From NCBI RefSeq assembly GCF_046119375.1, contig NW_027362765.1:199330001-199394000 (forward strand): a DNA stretch of 64,000 nt, read 5' to 3'. The notes under the pieces were generated by a model, which saw nothing but the letters and a program-made list of their open reading frames with translations, was not told the origin of the DNA and did not search any database. The translations under genes and the position numbers were made by a program. This stretch comes from Phyllobates terribilis. Its lineage: Eukaryota. This document shows, one piece after another, positions 2,912-64,000 of this stretch (positions within the stretch are counted from its first letter, which is position 1; each line of letters opens with the position of its first letter).

Positions 2912-4124
2912 TGACGCGCCCCCTGGGCCAGTGTTGTTAGGGGGATACCCGGAGCCGGATCAGATGGGGGTTGTAGTCTCCGAGTGGCGGTGACCCGGTC
3001 CGTGCCCAGGGTGTCAAGCTCAGTGTGTGGCAGTCCTACAGATGTTGCTGGATGTTCTTTCGTGTCGACTACGCCACCCGTTGATTTGCGGTCAATACGG
3101 CCGCCGCTGCAGCAGGGTCCGCTGAGGCTGGTGGTGTGTGTGCAGCTTCTGGTGGTATAACCCCCAACGGGAGGGGTATAGCCTCAGGGGGTCAGTTGTG
3201 GAGGATGGTGGTGGTGAAGGTGCAGGATGAATCAGCAAGAAGACTCAGAGTCGGGCTGTGCAGTTCAGGGTTTTTACTTACTGCTGTTGTTCTGGTCACT
3301 CCGGCCTTGAGTGACCGCCCGAGCCGTGCTGCGTCCACCAGGTCCTGGACTCGGCCAACCCCCAGGTGATTCTGGAGCGTGGTCCTGAGCTCCCTCTCTG
3401 ACTTGTCCTTCTCTCTGGCCTTCCCCACCAGGGATCCACCTATGTCCGGCTCCCTCGGGCCTCTTGTTGGTAAAACCCTTGTCTCTGGGTTCCCTGACCC
3501 TATTCTTGGTTTGCCTTCCGGGTGGATTTAGTGGGTGGTCATGGCAGATCCTGCCCACGACCTCCGGTCTCTGGCTAAGGATTAGGGCCCTCCACCAGCT
3601 TGGGATCCGGTACCCTTGTGCCAACTCTTCACCCTCTGGTCTAATTTTGGGTTCTTGGAGTTCCCTCTTCTCCCCCTCTGGGTCCTTCTTTTCTCCTCTC
3701 TCTCACTTGGCCTTGGAGCTGGCTGAGCTGCTCTGCTCCTCTGACTCAACTCTGACAGACTGACCAAACCTCTACAAAAGACCCTGTTCTAAGATGGTTC
3801 CCACCTTATATACTCCCTCTATGTGTGAGCTCAGGTGACCAGCACCCAATGAGCTCCTAGCATTACCCAGACTGCTCCCCCTATCTGCCCCTACACTACT
3901 GGGATGTTCCACCCCCCTCCCACTCCAGCCAGGGACAGACACTGTCGTACCTGCACATTTCTCTAGTGGGAGTACCATTGGTCTGTCCCCCGGAAATGGG
4001 ATGTGTGTAGTGCATGCAGCCTACTGAGCTCAGTTCCACACTCCATCCTTACCCGGGAGTGGAATATCACACCTCTGGCTGAGGTGCAATACCCCTGTAG
4101 CAGCCGAATCCTCACGGTGCTACA
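2912..4124 (-). repeat. 3' LTR
   Basis: Direct repeat of 6462-7674 (offset 3550), about 5 substitutions noticed. TATATAA at 3806-3812 and AGTAAA at 3273-3278 on minus. Confidence 0.95.
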
Positions 4125-4135
4125 TTCCCCCCTGG
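4125..4135 (-). other. Polypurine tract
   Basis: CCAGGGGGGAA immediately before the TG of the 3' LTR. Confidence 0.8.
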
Positions 4136-4534
4136 TAAATCACAGCACGTCCTCGGGCTGTAAGAGAATAAACATCCAAAACACACAATTTTTTCATAAA
4201 ACATAAACATATAAAACAATATATATATCAGCATAAACTTTTCATAAATAACATTCTTGTTAACACTCTTGTTCCTCCGGCCACGGTGCAACTTGTGTAA
4301 AGTGCGACAGTCTCTTCAAGAAAAACAACAGTTTCCTATAAAACCGGTAGGGGGCGCCTTAGAAAGCGCAACTATATACAGGGGGAATATGGCCGCTCTC
4401 AGTCCTCGGCCAGGTAATGGGAATAGGGACACACGGGTTAACAGTTCACTCTTGTCCCAACGGGGACATATTTAAAGCAGCAACAGTTCACTTTTCCCCC
4501 GATGGGTAACTATTTACAGTCTCTTTACCGTACT

Positions 4535-6436
4535 TTAACGACGGCGTCCTCCTGCTCCTTCTTTATCTTCAGACCCGTTCGAGTCCTCTTGCTCCTCCTC
4601 ACACCGCAGCTCCTCCTCCGTCAGGCGATGCACATGGAGGGCGTAGGGTCCTTTGGCACATTTGTGCCGGGTGAACGTGACCTCGTCCCCTACGTACAGG
4701 TCACGACCTCTGTGTCCCTCCGGCAGATGGCTTTCTACGTCTCTGCGGGTTACAAAGACGTCGCCGGGGGTATGATGGTCTCTTATGAAGCCCCACCCAT
4801 GCTGCAGGTTGAATTTAATCACAGTCCCGGTGGTACGGGGACCATGAGCTGCACGGGGGTTCCTCCTGGTCCGGCTCTTCTGCCCTGCGCTCTGTTCTTG
4901 CAGCCGCTGCTCTCGGACCCGCCTCTCTCTCCGTTCTCGCTCGAAGTCTGCCAACTGCTGGCGGCAGCACTCCACACGCTCTGCTGCGGCTGCCCGCGTT
5001 TCTTGAGTGAACCCCATGAGATCTCCTCCGGTGGGGTCCCACTCGAACTGCGCCTCTTCCAGCGGGAGCGGGGTTCTCCTGACGGGCTTCGGAACCGGAA
5101 TCAGGGGCTCACCTAGGGGTCTTTCTTTCCGGAGTCGGGGATGGTGAAACTCCGGTGGCCACACAAAGGGCTGGCCATCCGGGCACGTATGCTGGGCGAA
5201 CAGGTCCTCACCCAGGTGCGGTACTTTAGGTGTTATGGGCGCTGTGGTGGTAGCGGCGCCCGGGTTGACCAGGCCTTGCGACCAGGCTTGGGGCACGCTA
5301 AAGGAAAAGGGCACCGTAAGAACGGCGGCGCCCGTGGTTACTCGGCCCTGCGACCAGGCTGGTGGCTCCTCGGAGGTAGGGGGCGCTGTTGGAATGGCGG
5401 CGCCCGGGTGTACTAGGCCTTGCGACCAGGCCGATGGTATTTCCTGCTTCGCCGTGCTCAGGGTCGAGGCGTATGACGTCACAGGGGTCGCGGCCGCGGC
5501 TTCTACTTGAGGCCTAGTCCGGCACGGTGACGATGCAGCGACGGGCATGGCAGGGGGAACTTCGGGCTCTGCGACGGGGAGCTGGGGCAGGCACGCGGTT
5601 TCCCAGCTCGGGGTAGAGACGTCCCCTTTACCTGCCTCCATTCGTTCAGCTCCCTTCTCGGCGCCGTCTCCGGCCTTGAGTCCTCCTGCACCATCCTCAG
5701 AGGCGGTCTGTCTCCTCGTCTCGGGTGGCGTGCTCCGCTGACGGGTTTCGGTCCGCTGAACCATCTCTCGGCTCCACTCCGCCAACGTCTCTCGCTGCAC
5801 CCGGGCCATCCTCCGTGCGAGGCCCTCCAGCGCAGTCTGTGCACACTCCCGGTCTCGGGGGAGCTGTGCCAGGACCTCCACTAGGCCTAGTGGGGTTGTG
5901 GCTTGTAGCAGGCTCCTGACCACTGGGTCGGTGCTGCCTGACTCTCCCTCCATCTCCGGGTAGGCTTTCTCAGGACTCCTCTCCAGACTTCTTGTCTCCG
6001 GGTGCGCTCTCTCCAGACTGCTCCAGGCTGCACCCATCTTTGCTCTCTTGTTCTGTCTCCGCCCACATTGAAGGTGGTCCCGGGGCAACTTTGTGATTGT
6101 CAGTTCCAGGGGCAGTTCTCTCACGCTGATGGACACTTCCAGCATCACAGTCTCTGTTGGTGGGCGCGGTTTCCGCTTTTGGCGCCATTCTTCGACCTGG
6201 CCCACGATGGGAGGTGGCCTCTTGCCACCCTCTGGCACGCCCATAATGGCGTCCGCTCTTCCAAGGCGGGAAATCTTTGGAAATGGCGGGAAAAAGCTGC
6301 AAATGGCGGACAACCGGCGGGAAACGACCTGTGATGGAGTCCGTTGGCGGGGACCCTCCAGAACCGGCGGGAGACTTCTTTTTGAGGTAACGGTGAACTT
6401 TTCTTCAGGCACGCAGTACCCGGTTGTTGCGGGCAC
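4535..6436 (-). CDS. Retroelement ORF (633 codons from GTG; first ATG 6244, strong-context ATG 6037) with a C-terminal cold-shock domain
   Basis: Intact ORF: helical N-terminal part, Pro/Ala-rich repeats, charged coiled-coil, then GTVIKFNLQHGWGFI..DVFV..DLYVGDEVTF..GPYALHV (CSD, about 4622-4834) and an acidic tail. Confidence 0.8.
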   Translation of the reverse strand: MPATTGYCVPEEKFTVTSKRSLPPVLEGPRQRTPSQVVSRRLSAICSFFPPFPKISRLGRADAIMGVPEGGKRPPPIVGQVEEWRQKRKPRPPTETVMLEVSISVRELPLELTITKLPRDHLQCGRRQNKRAKMGAAWSSLERAHPETRSLERSPEKAYPEMEGESGSTDPVVRSLLQATTPLGLVEVLAQLPRDRECAQTALEGLARRMARVQRETLAEWSREMVQRTETRQRSTPPETRRQTASEDGAGGLKAGDGAEKGAERMEAGKGDVSTPSWETACLPQLPVAEPEVPPAMPVAASSPCRTRPQVEAAAATPVTSYASTLSTAKQEIPSAWSQGLVHPGAAIPTAPPTSEEPPAWSQGRVTTGAAVLTVPFSFSVPQAWSQGLVNPGAATTTAPITPKVPHLGEDLFAQHTCPDGQPFVWPPEFHHPRLRKERPLGEPLIPVPKPVRRTPLPLEEAQFEWDPTGGDLMGFTQETRAAAAERVECCRQQLADFERERRERRVREQRLQEQSAGQKSRTRRNPRAAHGPRTTGTVIKFNLQHGWGFIRDHHTPGDVFVTRRDVESHLPEGHRGRDLYVGDEVTFTRHKCAKGPYALHVHRLTEEELRCEEEQEDSNGSEDKEGAGGRRR

Positions 6437-6439
6437 GTT

Positions 6440-6457
6440 ATCCTGCCGACTACGCCA
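6440..6457 (-). other. Primer binding site for tRNA-Ser
   Basis: TGGCGTAGTCGGCAGGAT is an 18-nt complement of the vertebrate tRNA-Ser(AGA/TGA) 3' end including CCA, 4 nt downstream of the 5' LTR. Confidence 0.92.
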
Positions 6458-6461
6458 AAGT

Positions 6462-7674
6462 TGACGCGCCCCCTGGGCCAGTGTTGTTTGGGGGATACCC
6501 GGAGCCGGATCAGATGGGGGTTGTAGTCTCCGAGTGGCGGTGACCCGGTCCGTGCCCAGGGTGTCAAGCTCAGTGTGTGGCAGTCCTACAGATGTTGCTG
6601 GATGTTCTTTAGTGTCGACTACGCCACCCGTTGATTTGCGGTCAATACGGCCGCCGCTGCAGCAGGGTCCGCTGAGGCTGGTGGTGTGTGTGCAGCTTCT
6701 GGTGGTATAACCCCCAACGGGAGGGGTATAGCCTCAGGGGGTCAGTTGTGGAGGATGGTGGTGGTGAAGGTGCAGGATGAATCAGCAAGAAGACTCAGAG
6801 TCGGGCTGTGCAGTTCAGGGTTTTTACTTACTGCTGTTGTTCTGGTCACTCCGGCCTTGAGTGACCGCCCGAGCCGTGCTGCGTCCACCAGGTCCTGGAC
6901 TCGGCCAACCCCCAGGTGATTCTGGAGCGTGGTCCTGAGCTCCCTCTCTGACTTGTCCTTCTCTCTGGCCTTCCCCACCAGGGATCCACCTATGTCCGGC
7001 TCCCTCGGGCCTCTTGTTGGTAAAACCCTTGTCTCTGGGTTCCCTGACCCTATTCTTGGTTTGCCTTCCGGGTGGATTTAGTGGGTGGTCGTGGCAGATC
7101 CTGCCCACGACCTCCGGTCTCTGGCTAAGGATTAGGGCCCTCCACCAGCTTGGGATCCGGTACCCTTGTGCCAACTCTTCACCCTCTGGTCTAATTTTGG
7201 GTTCTTGGAGTTCCCTCTTCTCCCCCTCTGGGTCCTTCTTTTCTCCTCTCTCTCACTTGGCCTTGGAGCTGGCTGAGCTGCTCTGCTCCTCTGACTCAAC
7301 TCTGACAGACTGACCAAACCTCTACAAAAGACCCTGTTCTAAGATGGTTCCCACCTTATATACTCCCTCTATGTGTGAGCTCAGGTGACCAGCACCCAAT
7401 GAGCTCCTAGCATTACCCAGACTGCTCCCCCTATCTGCCCCTACACTACTGGGATGTTCCACCCCCCTCCCACTTCAGCCAGGGACAGACACTGTCGTAC
7501 CTGCACATTTCTCTAGTGGGAGTACCATTGGTCTGTCCCCCGGAAATGGGATGTGTGTAGTGCATGCAGCCTACTGAGCTCAGTTCCACACTCCATCCTT
7601 ACCCGGGAGTGGAATATCACACCTCTGGCTGAGGTGCAATACCCCTGTAGCAGCCGAATCCTCAGGGTGCTACA
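6462..7674 (-). repeat. 5' LTR
   Basis: Direct repeat of 2912-4124, followed on minus by the PBS. Confidence 0.95.
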
Positions 7675-7904
7675 TACTGCACTGTGGAAATTAAAGGTGC
7701 TGTATAAGCAATGCATAATAAATAATATGTCAGTGCAAAGAAGAAGATGCATTAGTTGCCCATAGCAACCAATCAGATTGCAGATTTCATTATAGTGGCT
7801 GTGAACAATAAGGGGTGATAGGGTGCCATGAGCAACAGCTCCCCTTTTCCTTAGCGCCACTTTGCTAAGTGTCCAGCAGCACTGCCCTATGACGAGCCCT
7901 GGTG

Positions 7905-57795: not shown

Positions 57796-58811
57796 TGACG
57801 TGCCCCCTGGGTCGTGCGTGTAGGGGAATACCCGGAGCCGGGTCTCTGTGTAATGCTGGGGGTTGTAGTCTCCGTGGCAGTGACCCGGTCCCGTGGCTCA
57901 GGGTGGTCAAACCAGTGGCGGATCTGTTTCTTTGGTTTTGTAATGTTTGAATGTCCGACTACGCCACCTGTGGATTGCAGTCACTGAGAACCGCCGCTGC
58001 GGGGCAGACCGCTGAGGCTGATGTTGTGTGCGCAGCAGAGGGTAGTATAACTCCCCACGGGAGGAGTATAGCCTCAGGGCAGCGTCTATAGATGGTGTGG
58101 GTTGTGGTGCGTGGGCGCCGCAGAAATGACTCAGAGTCCGTGCAGTGCAGTTCAGGGTCTTTACTGTTGGTAATGAAGAAGGCCCTGCCGGGAGTACTGG
58201 CTAACATTAGAGGCCTGGTCAGTCTGTGAGCGAACAAGAGTCCCCCTGGCCAGGTGGAGGTGTAGGCCTTCCCGTCTGACTGCACTCTTCCTGGCTACCC
58301 TGCTGTAGTCGTGTAGTAGCCCACGTCCCTGAGTGTACCGTGTGGTGCTCACCCGTATGGCTGGTGACTTGGGGCCTTTGGTTCCTTCTGCTCCTCGATG
58401 GCGGTGCCGTTCCCTTGCGTGTGACTGAGCCTCCGGGCTTTCTATGGCCCCAGGACCAGAAATCCCCTGCCAGGTGGTTTCTGCTGCTGAATGTAGATAT
58501 CCTCACAGCCTCGAACTCCAGTGTCCGGTTCTCTGCGTCTTTCTGCCAGGACGAGCTCTGCTGCTCCAGTCCCTGGTCTTCAGCTCCTGGCTCCTACAGA
58601 GCTCTTTGCTGCTGCTCTGTCCCTTCCTCTGGAACTAGACTCAACTACCTAACCCCGCCCCAGATCCAGTTTATAAAGGGCAGGTCCCTCCCCTCCCTGG
58701 ACTGGGGCAGGAGGTGTGGCATGCAATAATGCTCCTGACCAGGAAAACCCATGCTCGCTCTCAGACATGGTATTTCTACCACTGTGGCTACCAGACCCTT
58801 GGGGTGCCACA
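57796..58811 (-). repeat. 3' LTR, related in U5 to the LTRs of 2912-7674
   Basis: Shared blocks TGACG.GCCCCCTGGG, GGGGGTTGTAGTCTCCG, CGACTACGCCACC, CTGAGGCT..AGCCTCAG, GACTCAGAGTC and CAGTTCAGGG..TTTACT. Confidence 0.88.
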
Positions 58812-59649: not shown

Positions 59650-62600
59650 TCAGAGTACTATACTGAGCATTTCTTCCCTTTCCTCTGCAGGTTTAGGGCT
59701 ATCTTGGTCTTCATCAGTGCTTTGCAGCTGCTCGGGACACTTCTTCAGGTGGTCTCTGCAGACAGTGGCTGTGGTCTCTCCTCCATCCTTACTGATAACG
59801 CATACTTTCGGATTTTCATGGCTTGATGGCAGTACTGTGTACGGTTCCTTCTCCCACTGGTCATCCAACTTATGGAGCCGCCTCTTCCTCTTCAAGACCT
59901 GCTCTCCAGGTGCCAGAGGAGCAGCGGGAGCATGCTGGTTATAAGTCCTCTCTTGCCTTTCTCTTGCTTGAGACAGACTTCTCTCAACACTCTCCTGCAC
60001 TTTCCTGTACTGCTGCTGCCGTTCTGTATCCCAGTCTGCCTCTGGCGAGGTGTCCTCGGGCGCCAGGACTCCCATATCCAGGTCAATAGGCAGCTTACCA
60101 GGTCTTGCTCTCATTAGGTAAGCCGGGGTGCAGTTGGTGGAATTTACTGGGATGTGGTTATACAAGTCCACCAGATCAGGCAGTTTCTCAGGCCACAGAC
60201 TGCGTTCTTCCAGGGGCAACGTTTTCAGCAAGTCTATCACCACCTGGTTCATCTTCTCGCATAATCCGTTGGTTTGGGGGTGATAGAGCGTTGTCCTTAT
60301 CTTCTTGCAGCCATACAGGTTGCAGAACTCCTGGAAGACCTCCGCTTCGAAGGCTGGACCTTGGTCAGTCAACACTTGCTCGAGATACCCGTGTGGACGG
60401 CAGAAGTGCTGCTGGAAGGCTCTAGCTGCTGTCTGAGCTGTTAAGTCCTTGACAGGGACCACCACCAGGAACCGGGAGTAGTGGTCTAAGATGGTGAGGG
60501 TGTAGACGTACCCGGATCTACTTGGAGCCAGCTTCACATGGTCCAGGGCTACCAGTTCTAGTGGCTGCTTGGTGATGATGGACTGCAGAGGAGTCTTCTG
60601 GCTGGCACGGTCCTTTCTTCTCGGGTTGCACAGGCCGCAGTCTCTGCACCATCTCTCAATGGCCCTTCTCATGCCTACCCAGAAGAACTGTTCACGCAAC
60701 AGGAACTCCAACTTCTTCCATCGAAAGTGCCCTGCCCCGTCGTGGTATGCCTCCAGGACCATAGCCGCATCTCGTCTCAGGACCACTACCTGCCAGGTCA
60801 GCTCATGTGTCCGGGAGTTGACAATTCTCCGGCACAGCTTCCCCTTGTAGAGAAACAGTTTACTCTTCTCCTTCCACATCTGTTTAGTTTCTTCCGGAGC
60901 GTCTGGGTCAAGGCGGGCATCAGCCTGTGTCAGCATCTCTTTTACCAGGTGGACGGCTGGGTCACTGTCTTGCGTCTCTGCCCAGCTGTGGTGGGGTAAG
61001 GGATGGAACGTGGCAGAGTGCCTGTCCCTTACACGGTGGGAACACTGGGTAATCCCACGACAGTGGAACGCAGGGAGTTCAATCTCTTCCAGTTCTTCTG
61101 GATCCTCCCCTCCGTCCGGCAAGTTCGGCATCCTGGACAGGGCGTCTGCGTTGGCATTTGTGCGTCCCGCCCGGTATTTGATGGTGAACTCATAGTTGGA
61201 TAGACGGGCCATCCATCTCTGCTCCAGGGCACCAAGTTTTGCAGTTTCCAGGTGTGTCAACGGGTTGTTGTCCGTGTACACGGTGAACTTGGAAGAGGCA
61301 AGGTAATGTTTAAAGCGCTCTGTCACTGCACATACCACCGCGAGGAACTCTAGCTTGAAGGAGCTGTAATTTTCAGGATTCCTTTCTGTGGGCCGGAGCT
61401 TCCTGCTAGCATAAGCGATTACCCGTTCTCTGCCCTGTTGGATCTGGGACAGCACCGCCCCTAGCCCGATGTTGCTCGCGTCTGTGTGGAGAATAAAAGG
61501 CTGGCCGTAATCAGGGTACGCCTGGATTTCATCCCCCGTGAGGGCCATCTTCAGCTGGCAGAAAGACTCATCCTCCAGCTTGTCCCATTTGAAGGGCGGC
61601 TTCTGGTTTTTGGCCTTCCTGGACTGGCCTATCAGGAGGTCCTGCATAGGGGCTGCCATTTTGATGAACCCGGAGATGAATCTTCGGTAGTGGCCTACCA
61701 ACCCGAGGAACTGCCGCACTTCCTTTATGCTGGAGGGTCTTGGCCAGTCCTTAATCACTGTGATCTTATCAGGGTCTGGAGCTACTCCGTCAGCACTCAC
61801 CACGTGTCCCAGGTACTGTACCTTTGGCTTCAGTATATGACACTTGGAGGGTTTCACCTTTAGGCCGTAGCCTGCCAGGGCGTCAAACACTTCTGCCAGG
61901 TGTCTGATCTTATCAGGGTCTGTAGCTACTCCGTCAGCACTCACCACGTGTCCCAGGTACTGTACCTTTGGCTTCAGTAGATGACACTTGGAGGGTTTCA
62001 CCTTTAGGCCGTAGCCTGCCAGGGCATCAAACACTTCTGCCAGGTGTCTCAGATGGTCCTCGTATGTTTTGGAACACACGATGACATCTTCCAGGTATAG
62101 CAGGACCGTCTCGAAATTCCTGTGCCCCAGGCAGCACTCCATCAACCGCTGGAAGGTCCCTGGTGCGTTGCAGAGCCCAAACGGCATACAGTTGAATTCG
62201 CTGAGACCCATTGGGGTGGTGAACGCGGTCTTCTTCTTGTCGGCCTCTGCTACAGGAACCTGCCAGTACCCGCTAGTAACATCCAAAGTGGAGAAGAAGT
62301 TAGCAGATTTTAATGCAGCTAAAGATTCCTCTATCCTTGGTAACGGGTACGCATCTTTGTGTGTAATACGGTTGACCTTCCTGTAGTCTACACACATTCT
62401 CATGGTGCCATCTTTCTTTTTCACAAGAACTAGTGGAGCTGCCCAGGGGCTACAGCTGTCCCTGATTACCCCAGCCTCCTTCATTTCTCGCAACATTCCC
62501 TTGGCATTCTGATAGTGTGTAGGGGGTACAGGTCGGTATCTTTCCTTTATGGGTGGATGGTCTCCCGTGGGGATGTGATGTTCTACCCCCTTTACTTGCC

Positions 62601-62697
62601 CAAAGTCTAGCGGGTGTTTGCTAAAAACTCTTTCGTACTCCTCAACCACCCGGTAGACTCCCTGTTTGTGGTGTGAGGGAGTGGAGTCGGTGCCCAC
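59650..62697 (-). pseudogene. Gypsy pol (RT, RNase H, integrase); upstream protease-region piece at 62710-63427 and IN tail at 59263-59610
   Basis: SPWAAP, RMCVDYR, MPFGL, YLED (mutated YxDD), DAS, TDNNPL, HHCC zinc finger, LTDQG..E. Stops or frameshifts lie on both sides. Confidence 0.9.
61762..62049. repeat. 144-bp in-frame tandem duplication in RT
   Basis: Two 48-aa units RHLAEVFD..DPDKI, with 3 differences noticed. Confidence 0.92.
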
Positions 62698-63427
62698 ATG
62701 CAGTTTCTGTCACCAGTCCTCCATTTGTTTCTTGGAGCCGTTACCCTCCTCTGGTTGAGATGGAGGCAAGGGTTCCACGGCCTTTCCAGAGTTTTGGTTA
62801 ACGGTGAACAATTTGGCTAAAGTGGCATACCGGGGCAAGTATACTTCTCTTTCCCCAATGTTTAGGATGCAGACGGGTACCCTCCCATGGCGTACATCGA
62901 CCACCCCCCGTGCTGTCAAAATGGTGGGCCTACTGTCTGAGTAGACGGGTTCTACCATGGCTTGGTAGTCCCTTCCTCTTAACCCGATTGCAGTCCGGCA
63001 CCAGATCATCATCTCACTTTTTGGGGGCATGGCGATAGGGAACGGGTCACTCATCCTTACACTACCAATCTCACCACCAGACAGTTCTACCTCTTGCCTT
63101 TTCATCAGGGCTCTGATCTCTTTTTGTAGGACACGCTGCTGGGTGGAGCTGGCGTTCACCGCAACCTGCTGTAATATGAAAATTATCTCTGCAAGACAAT
63201 ATTCAATAAAATTAGTACCCAAGGTTATCTTAGGGTGGCTTTCACGACGGTCAATGTCCACAATAATTAGTCCTTGCGCTGGCAGTTCAACTTTACCAAT
63301 TTTGATGGTCACCTCTTTGAATCCCACCTGCGGTACGGGCTAACCATTGCTGGCGATGATGCTCAAATCGTCATCTGGGTAGCGGGTAATATCCGAGTCA
63401 TTCCAGTACCGCTTAAAAAGCACATAC

Positions 63428-64000
63428 TGTTATGTTCTGCTACCAAAGCTAAGGAAAGAGAGGAGATCTGTCCCTACTATAAGACTCAGCTGAATCCCTA
63501 CGATGTAACAGGGAACCTGATCCTGCGATCAGACCTGCTAAAGTCCTAATCTAGTCTGTACGGAGACCTATAGATGTGAGGAGGGAATCCCTACAAGTAC
63601 TAAGGACTGGGAGGAATATGGGACACCTCCTAACAGAAATAGTAGCAGACAGACGAACAAACAAAATAGATAGAACATAGAGGTCCGTAGACCAAGCAAA
63701 CTAACAGAGTTAGATACAGAGCACAGGCTAGCTAGAAAGTAGATATACAATGAAGTCCAGCAAAGCCAGAAGGGCGGAGCAGGATTAAATAGGCCAACAA
63801 GGTCATGTGACCAGCAAAGGAAAAAAAACCTAACAGCAAGGTTCTAACAGTACCCCCCCTTCTAAGAGGATCCTCCGGATCCCCTAGGACCAGGCTTATC
63901 AGGAAATCTCCTGTGAAACGCTCTGATAAGTCTGGACGCGGAAACATCATCTGACCTCACCCAAGAGTTATCCTCGGGTCCGAAACCTTTCCAGGCCACA
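63428..64000 (-). mobile_element. Chromovirus (Gypsy) 3' end: 422-bp LTR 63428-63849, PPT, chromodomain C-terminus 63862-63999
   Basis: TGTTAG...TAACA LTR, G-rich PPT at 63850-63861, VAWKGFGPEDNSWV..RLIRAFH chromodomain. Confidence 0.85.

Follow-up and report, generated by a model that had tools for sequence, protein, structure and literature searches.

How an LTR element picks a single primer tRNA out of a pool that is mostly charged and loads it, and how its RNA is shared out between translation and packaging, are to our knowledge open questions. The stretch of DNA analysed here (hereafter the window) comprises 64,000 nucleotides of the Phyllobates terribilis genome (NCBI RefSeq assembly GCF_046119375.1, contig NW_027362765.1, positions 199,330,001 to 199,394,000). 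A preliminary description of the window found two interleaved helices in the U5 region of its LTRs and proposed that they present a Y-box-type RNA motif to cold-shock domain (CSD) proteins. Here, we ask what this U5 structure consists of, how widely it is shared and what it most probably does.

Two related Ser-primed retrotransposons in the window

The window contains a non-autonomous LTR element and part of a gag-pol element of the same clade, with the following features.

2912..7674, − strand: non-autonomous LTR element, recognized by its paired LTRs and target duplication
6440..6457, − strand: 18-nt true primer-binding site (PBS) for tRNA-Ser(AGA/UGA), recognized by its match to host tRNA-Ser genes
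3273..3278 (also 6823-6828 and 58160-58165), − strand: AGTAAA, putative and likely polyA signal
4535..6733, − strand: open frame of 732 codons, counted stop to stop, whose C-terminal part holds a CSD (residues 635-702)
57796..58811, − strand: 3' LTR of the gag-pol element (family 2)
59650..62709, − strand: pol frame (RT, RNase H, integrase), within which 144 nt are duplicated

The sense strand of the non-autonomous element is the − strand. Its LTRs are 1213 bp each with 5 mismatches between them, and a 5-bp target duplication flanks the element at 2907-2911 and 7675-7679. Since the helices are placed by the AGTAAA at 3273-3278, a TATA-like box at 3806-3812 in the LTR and the PBS at 6440-6457, the region that holds S1 and S2 (see below) can be assigned to U5. 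The 5' LTR of the family 2 element lies just beyond the window edge, with a U5 97% identical to that of the 3' copy. This element is interrupted upstream by another insertion (about 63410-64000), and the duplication in its pol frame is in tandem (61761-62048).

Members of the clade have paired LTRs with TG..CA ends, a 5-bp target duplication and a tRNA-Ser PBS, and the gag-pol elements encode gag followed by protease-RT-RNase H-integrase. By this domain order and the PNMA-type gag of a clade relative (Pfam E 5.6e-6), we assign the clade to the Ty3/Gypsy LTR retrotransposons, and within Gypsy it may correspond to the Mag clade. Exact PBS matches numbered 69,769 across the 10.6 Gb of genome searched, compared to 0 for the control. 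The database relatives returned for the element proteins came from poison frogs only (79% and 65% identity). The two LTRs of the window had been presented as diverged families that for the most part do not align. They are indeed distinct, but as subfamilies of one clade (RT 89-96% identical), and the whole of U5 aligns between them (384 columns, 72%).

First-look candidates in a Pfam search of the genome for the CSD (window domain 4535-4830) numbered 33,380; of the 150 that were scored, most had no stop in the domain, and many lay within frames of 700-800 codons. In most CSD elements (for example L033, L036, L092 and L102), the long frame crosses the LTR end and the PBS in frame, and in many of them an AUG stands 24 nt ahead of the PBS, within the LTR, where the window copy has CUG (6462-6484). 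Retrotransposon-borne CSD proteins were not evident among the papers listed by one literature search. Six strong intron-free CSD matches stand in tandem at G000:C1:734437889-734449260 and are unlike the element-borne ones.

A predicted five-helix RNA module in U5

S1, S2 and the inner hairpin of the preliminary description were found at their described places in all three window copies, but the module that contains them runs further 3', to 3066, 6616 and 57955. At about 128 nt, it is a predicted multi-pseudoknot RNA of five covarying helices (S1, P2, S3, S2 and S4).

6616..6743, − strand: U5 module of the 5' LTR, the copy that would be in the genomic RNA leader
3066..3193, − strand: U5 module of the 3' LTR, downstream of the likely polyA signal
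57955..58083, − strand: U5 module, family 2 copy
3122..3187, − strand: helix S1, 3180-3187 with 3122-3129, and 2 further pairs past a bulged base
3160..3177, − strand: inner stem P2, 3173-3177 with 3160-3164, 8-nt loop
3077..3171, − strand: pseudoknot helix S3, 7 bp, loop 3165-3171 with 3077-3083
3106..3146, − strand: helix S2, 3141-3146 with 3106-3111, whose loop 3130-3140 ends in CAYC
3088..3104, − strand: hairpin S4, one base past the S2 3' arm

Helix positions in the 5' LTR are those of the 3' LTR plus 3550. In family 2, S1 is formed by 58070-58077/58012-58019, and S3 has one C-A mismatch. S3 joins the 8-nt loop of the inner hairpin to a strand about 90 nt downstream and leaves one crossing base, which is the usual geometry of an H-type pseudoknot.

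Copies for the covariation analysis were found through the PBS alone and not through the motif, as the first 90 of the 69,769 loci, at one end of contig C1. Of these 90 loci, 88 carried the module, and in the remaining two U5 is interrupted by other sequence. The pairing exceeds chance: among 81 distinct copies, 96.8% of cells were paired, compared to 31-53% in slid controls, and 12 of the 36 pairs had changed on both sides, a number reached by 1 of 500 shuffles. No shuffle (0/500) reached the paired fraction, cells or covariation score of these copies; further pair types were no more numerous than in shuffled data (500/500). Since the 81 copies are related to each other, we turned to branches that split off earlier. 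In a second group (49,632 matches to a 16-nt pattern), other letters form the same fold, and the resulting deep set (n = 98) combined 41 sequences from the first set with 57 new ones, after 4 of 61 new sequences were dropped as duplicates or for length. In this set, S1, P2 and S3 were 98.1% paired, with 10 of 21 pairs doubly changed (6/500 shuffles). S2 and S4 were scored per sequence because MAFFT misaligned both; by this scoring, S2 has at least 5 bp in 93/98 and S4 at least 4 bp in 85/98, with S4 wholly replaced in one branch. Two variable S3 pairs show about four changes each on a flank-based tree.

Some details of the preliminary description need adjustment. S2 is a covarying helix, but the pair cited as its compensatory change is terminal and the least strict of the helix (AU 57, GC 12, GU 5, unpaired 7). 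The 10-nt spacer is kept in 74/81 copies, while the loop given as 11 nt ranges from 9 to 13 nt and has 11 nt in 35/81. Folding of single sequences does not recover the fold (z −0.5 to +0.5), as expected because of its pseudoknots, and the support for the fold is entirely comparative. Rfam covariance models gave 7 matches, all far below gathering (best E 0.65), and 0 in 8 further loci. We also considered HDV-like, hammerhead, hairpin and twister ribozymes, whose core motifs were not found on inspection and which gave no Rfam match.

An internal second primer-binding site abuts S3

The base that follows S3 begins a stretch complementary to the 3' end of the primer tRNA, and a partial complement of this stretch lies further downstream in U5.

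3066..3076, − strand: internal second PBS, 11 nt, abutting S3, recognized as the complement of the tRNA-Ser 3' end
3027..3035, − strand: partial complement of the internal site, which can fold back on it

By complementarity, the eleven bases of the site cover precisely the acceptor 3' strand, the discriminator and the CCA of this genome's tRNA-Ser(AGA) and (UGA) genes. In the 5' LTR copy, the site occupies 6616-6626 and starts 169 nt upstream of the PBS, and in the family 2 copy it is 12 nt long (57955-57966). Across the clade, its length is 10-13 nt, its first base follows S3 with zero spacer, and it lies 143-190 nt upstream of the true PBS. The AGA-type site agrees with the host tRNA 3' end in 95-100% of 88 copies at positions 1-10, in 89% at position 11 and in 34% at position 12, and in CGA-primed elements the match extends to position 13. 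A match that ends at 10-13 nt thus corresponds to the acceptor strand plus NCCA, not to an entire copy of the PBS. Identity among the 88 copies is 0.98 in the site compared to 0.45 in the unaligned spacer just behind it, and S3 is intact (7/7 pairs) in 84/88 AGA/UGA-primed and 21/28 CGA-primed elements. The preliminary description was therefore partial, since it missed S3, S4 and the tRNA-complementary site, the last of which carries the strongest signal.

Under a folding model that leaves out modifications and stacking, the internal site binds the cognate tRNA at −12.2 kcal/mol and the other isodecoder at −5.6 kcal/mol, and the full PBS binds the tRNA at −20.1 kcal/mol. In the window family, the fold-back on the site reaches −12.1 kcal/mol in the same model, equal to cognate tRNA binding; the complement at 3027-3035 is not conserved where CGA is the primer type.

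At L366, L369, L373, L375 and L380, the true PBS is duplicated in tandem at a distance of about 33 nt. Short-U5 versions of the site in this genome (100 matches) were set aside, as they look like deletions or tandem PBS copies. A decoy for Argonaute-loaded 3' tRNA fragments is disfavoured because the site lacks most of the PBS positions expected to pair with the seed of such an 18-nt fragment.

The site changes with the primer tRNA

Part of the clade carries a second PBS type (8,117 matches) that is complementary to the tRNA-Ser(CGA) gene of the genome, and the primers of both types are thus tRNA-Ser genes found in this genome. The AGA/UGA-type and CGA-type PBSs differ at six adjacent bases, and the two types of internal site differ likewise. 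When the internal site was located from S3 and the shared UGGC only, without the discriminating bases, its type equalled that of the PBS in 88/90 AGA/UGA-primed and 28/30 CGA-primed elements; four of the 120 sampled elements were unanchored and none was discordant. In another AGA-primed lineage, which carries a CSD and has an LTR that groups among the CGA type, the internal site is of the AGA type in 6/7 elements, with a 2-nt insertion in one. Genome-wide, a search in the direction of a CGA-type site before an AGA-type PBS gave 4 elements. By their junctions, all 4 look like chimeras of two lineages, each distinct: L507-L510 join a CGA-type LTR to the leader of the AGA-primed CSD lineage, which suggests that both lineages are co-packaged.

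On a flank tree with a weak backbone (114 sequences, 11 loci skipped), primer and site change 3 times each by parsimony. The RT tree nests AGA gag-pol elements among CGA ones, with one switch among gag-pol elements. Given the weak backbone and likely recombination, 1-3 switch events is the honest range.

Our first candidate for the tRNA(CGA) was rejected as a retrocopy of a tRNA end, with the gene found at 1 of 9 loci. The other 8 of these 9 matches to the tRNA-Ser(CGA) 3' arm (L498 and L500-L506) are 25-50-nt tRNA-end copies, most of which end in CCA and some of which are joined to element leader sequence; they are likely products of read-through of the primer. A third primer type was also considered and dropped, as the 30 loci read from 2,439 matches were point variants, 29 of them with no PBS behind. 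The bulged base past the S1 3' arm (window 3121, column 78 of alignment A2) tracks primer type as well, being C in 49/55 AGA-type and A or U in 43/43 CGA-type sequences, which could reflect a tRNA contact or shared descent. In the remaining U5 (window 2912-3065), there are more recurring inverted repeats and a second partial PBS complement that seems to change with primer type.

A helix and site recur in distant families

A metagenome scan for the PBS gave at least 115 loci, 50 with an LTR-like end (a few of them probably by chance) and 65 others. Among the matches listed, an internal copy of 10-12 nt was present 37-86 nt upstream of the PBS in 6/50 loci with an LTR-like end, representing 4 families, compared to 0/65 of the others. 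In all 4 families, the site is immediately preceded by the end of a helix (8, 7, 7 and 6 bp), and the sequences of these helices differ from family to family. Against the background, a helix end of this kind was seen at 1.7%, 4.3% and 10.6% of positions, and 0/49 true PBSs have an abutting helix of more than 4 bp. As far as the loci extend into gag, the gags of these families share about 24-25% identity with those of the window clade, and for one family all named relatives among the 120 matches listed are teleost fish.

S1, S2 and S4 are absent from the four distant families, a search of 39 metagenome loci with our covariance model gave no full match, and the RT tree, built on the loci analysed here only, does not resolve these families as relatives of the window clade. 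Judged by what these sequences share, helix plus site is the widest-shared core, and the S1/S2 pseudoknot would be a clade-specific scaffold around it. The internal site was absent from 23/30 loci found through other LTR ends, mostly short-U5 families, and most metagenome families and other Ser-primed clades in this genome do not have it. Since those other Ser-primed clades lack the site, it is not needed for Ser priming as such. Viral contigs contained 20 PBS-pattern matches and no related RT locus.

A proposed dock for the primer tRNA

We propose, with a probability of about one half, that the U5 module docks the 3' end of primer tRNA-Ser and so captures and holds the primer near the true PBS, ready for reverse transcription. 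This reading draws on the five covarying helices, the tRNA match, the joint switch of site and PBS, and the layout common to four distant families. The free NCCA of the tRNA would serve as a toehold that nucleates on the internal site, the site would then displace the tRNA's own identical 5' acceptor strand, and the new duplex would stack on S3 to form a continuous P2-S3-tRNA helix. Since the tRNA bases that pair with the site also pair with the PBS, the site would hold either a second tRNA or the primer before its hand-off to the stronger 18-nt PBS, which the modelled energies (−20.1 versus −12.2 kcal/mol) predict to be downhill. S3 would stand directly in the path of reverse transcriptase and may thus hinder priming from the wrong site. 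Several points weigh against a primer dock: the fold-back partner in the window family competes at equal model energy, the switches are few (3 by parsimony, possibly 1-2 given recombination), other uses of a bound tRNA fit the same evidence, and the distant families are without S1, S2 and S4, with their kinship to the clade unsupported.

Among those other uses, the bound tRNA could gate a switch, locking S3 and the pseudoknot, blocking scanning and moving the RNA from translation to packaging, possibly while reading charging. We consider this unlikely, although an alternative fold-back on the site exists and the 1170-nt leader is AUG-poor (1.6 AUGs compared to 9.6 expected, 39 elements), which fits scanning across the module. 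The distant families have a plain hairpin only. In an extended form, the leader would be a eukaryotic T-box-like sensor that captures the free 3' end of one specific host tRNA on its pseudoknot-stacked dock, selects the uncharged form able to prime and switches the RNA from translation to packaging and reverse transcription, an analogy to which we likewise assign a low probability. T-boxes, according to the part of PMC7583486 available to us, all present UGG (as UGGN) at a helix edge and stack coaxially with the tRNA, and the UGGN of the module directly adjoins a helix. However, the module has no Stem I or specifier codon, 7-nt bulge, helix A2 or steric G-U; it pairs over 10-13 bp and not 4, its helix partner lies upstream, it belongs to a eukaryotic mobile element, and it has no Rfam match. 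No specifier codon tracks the anticodon, in that no column set within the 128-nt module follows the Ser-codon switch as a T-box specifier would, and the position equivalent to the T-box steric sensor varies in base (U 41, A 39, G 18 of 98). The module may thus work partly like a T-box discriminator without being one. A non-AUG IRES starting at the module was rejected, as it keeps no constant frame relative to gag or the CSD ORF; the start codon of gag is an AUG that lies some 350-520 nt past the PBS.

The site might act as an intramolecular decoy, soaking up U5 partners that hide the PBS and following the PBS through those shared partners. The partial complements in AGA-primed U5 agree with this, with a mean best helix of 6.0 bp to their own PBS compared to 4.5 bp to the other, as does the window-copy fold-back of −12.1 kcal/mol. 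In CGA-primed elements, however, the best partner forms 5.1 bp with its own site and 6.2 bp with the other despite the 13-nt tRNA match, and the zero-spacer helix in five unrelated sequence contexts is left unexplained, which makes a decoy quite improbable. The 3' end of minus-strand DNA is identical in sequence to that of the tRNA, and the site could be its acceptor, aiding the second strand transfer, or a site of occasional stray priming that repeatedly rewrites the sequence. Either would predict the same joint switch and explain the change of a six-base block, and chimeric and tandem-PBS copies exist. Yet the match ends at 10-13 nt, at points specific to the subfamily, unlike an 18-nt templated copy, and U-G wobbles in P2, which are found at subfamily level in 13 and 17 of the 81 copies, point to a fold of the sense-strand RNA. 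In the established scheme of reverse transcription, that RNA is mostly degraded by the stage of second strand transfer. We therefore give this explanation very little weight. A neutral relic of an old PBS duplication in a generally structured U5 would agree with the PBS duplications that occur in single copies, but is scarcely credible for a site with an identity of 0.98 against 0.45 behind it, which switches with the primer and recurs against a helix in distant families.

The preliminary description had inferred a structured cis-element in U5, and this part is supported; its pairing with a Y-box or CSD protein is not the best reading. The motifs are as it cited them, AACAUC for FRGY and CAUC/CACC for YB-1, in the portion of PMC3458536 available to us. 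CAYC is found in 79/81 and 94/98 loops, standing at the 3' end of a loop predicted to be single-stranded, compared to 13-29% of background 11-nt windows, but AACAUC is found in only 12/81 and 12/98. CSD elements have the module in 17/17 cases; however, it is also in 4 elements with neither CSD nor gag-pol and in 38/39 gag-pol elements, none of which has a CSD match within 7 kb, so that the expected co-occurrence with CSD frames does not hold. A second non-autonomous Ser-primed family (L394:6419-7807, − strand) has a CSD-like domain, 36% identical to that of the window (Pfam E 7e-4, below the curated cut-off), and neither the module nor its internal site. As a YB-1/FRGY2 site, CAYC is a short degenerate motif in a loop of variable length that leaves most of the conserved module, including S3 and the tRNA site, unaccounted for, and it could be structural, for example by pairing with the invariant GGUG at the junction of S3 and site. 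It is most improbable that the fold mainly serves to offer a Y-box motif to the CSD protein of the element or to Y-box proteins of the host, although secondary binding at the loop, including by a CSD protein acting in trans, is possible.

Discussion

Pairing between element and tRNA outside a single PBS has a precedent in LTR retrotransposons. In the available part of PMC5371799, Ty1 and Ty3 are described with a bipartite PBS, whose segments pair with different parts of one tRNA and jointly form one PBS. The module differs in having a full 18-nt PBS and a site for the same 3' end, which must compete or require two tRNAs. Mutants of the Ty1 5' pseudoknot are impaired in reverse transcription, according to the accessible part of PMC3681743, and set a precedent for such a role of a pseudoknot that lies in the 5' region of the RNA of an LTR retrotransposon. 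Ty1 belongs to another element group, that part of the paper describes no second site for a tRNA 3' end, and the five helices of the module lie wholly in U5. The module also resembles retroviral U5 in being a structured region next to the PBS that may tune initiation. In retroviruses, U5 stems and primer activation signals either lie beside the true PBS or pair with the T-arm. The module helix, on the other hand, adjoins a duplicate of the PBS that lies 143-190 nt upstream of the true one.

A search of the full-text literature, which excluded subscription papers, repeat-database entries and supplements, returned no description of this module. On comparative grounds, we regard it as a real and apparently undescribed structured RNA with a second primer-tRNA site, whose function we infer. 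It offers a compact, testable, RNA-only handle on primer loading and on the division of one RNA between translation and packaging. Evolution has already made the specificity swap, between two tRNA-Ser isodecoders, and a single genome provides copies by the tens of thousands. Should tRNA binding be confirmed, the module would represent a new family of structured RNAs and a eukaryotic parallel to the stacking geometry of T-boxes.
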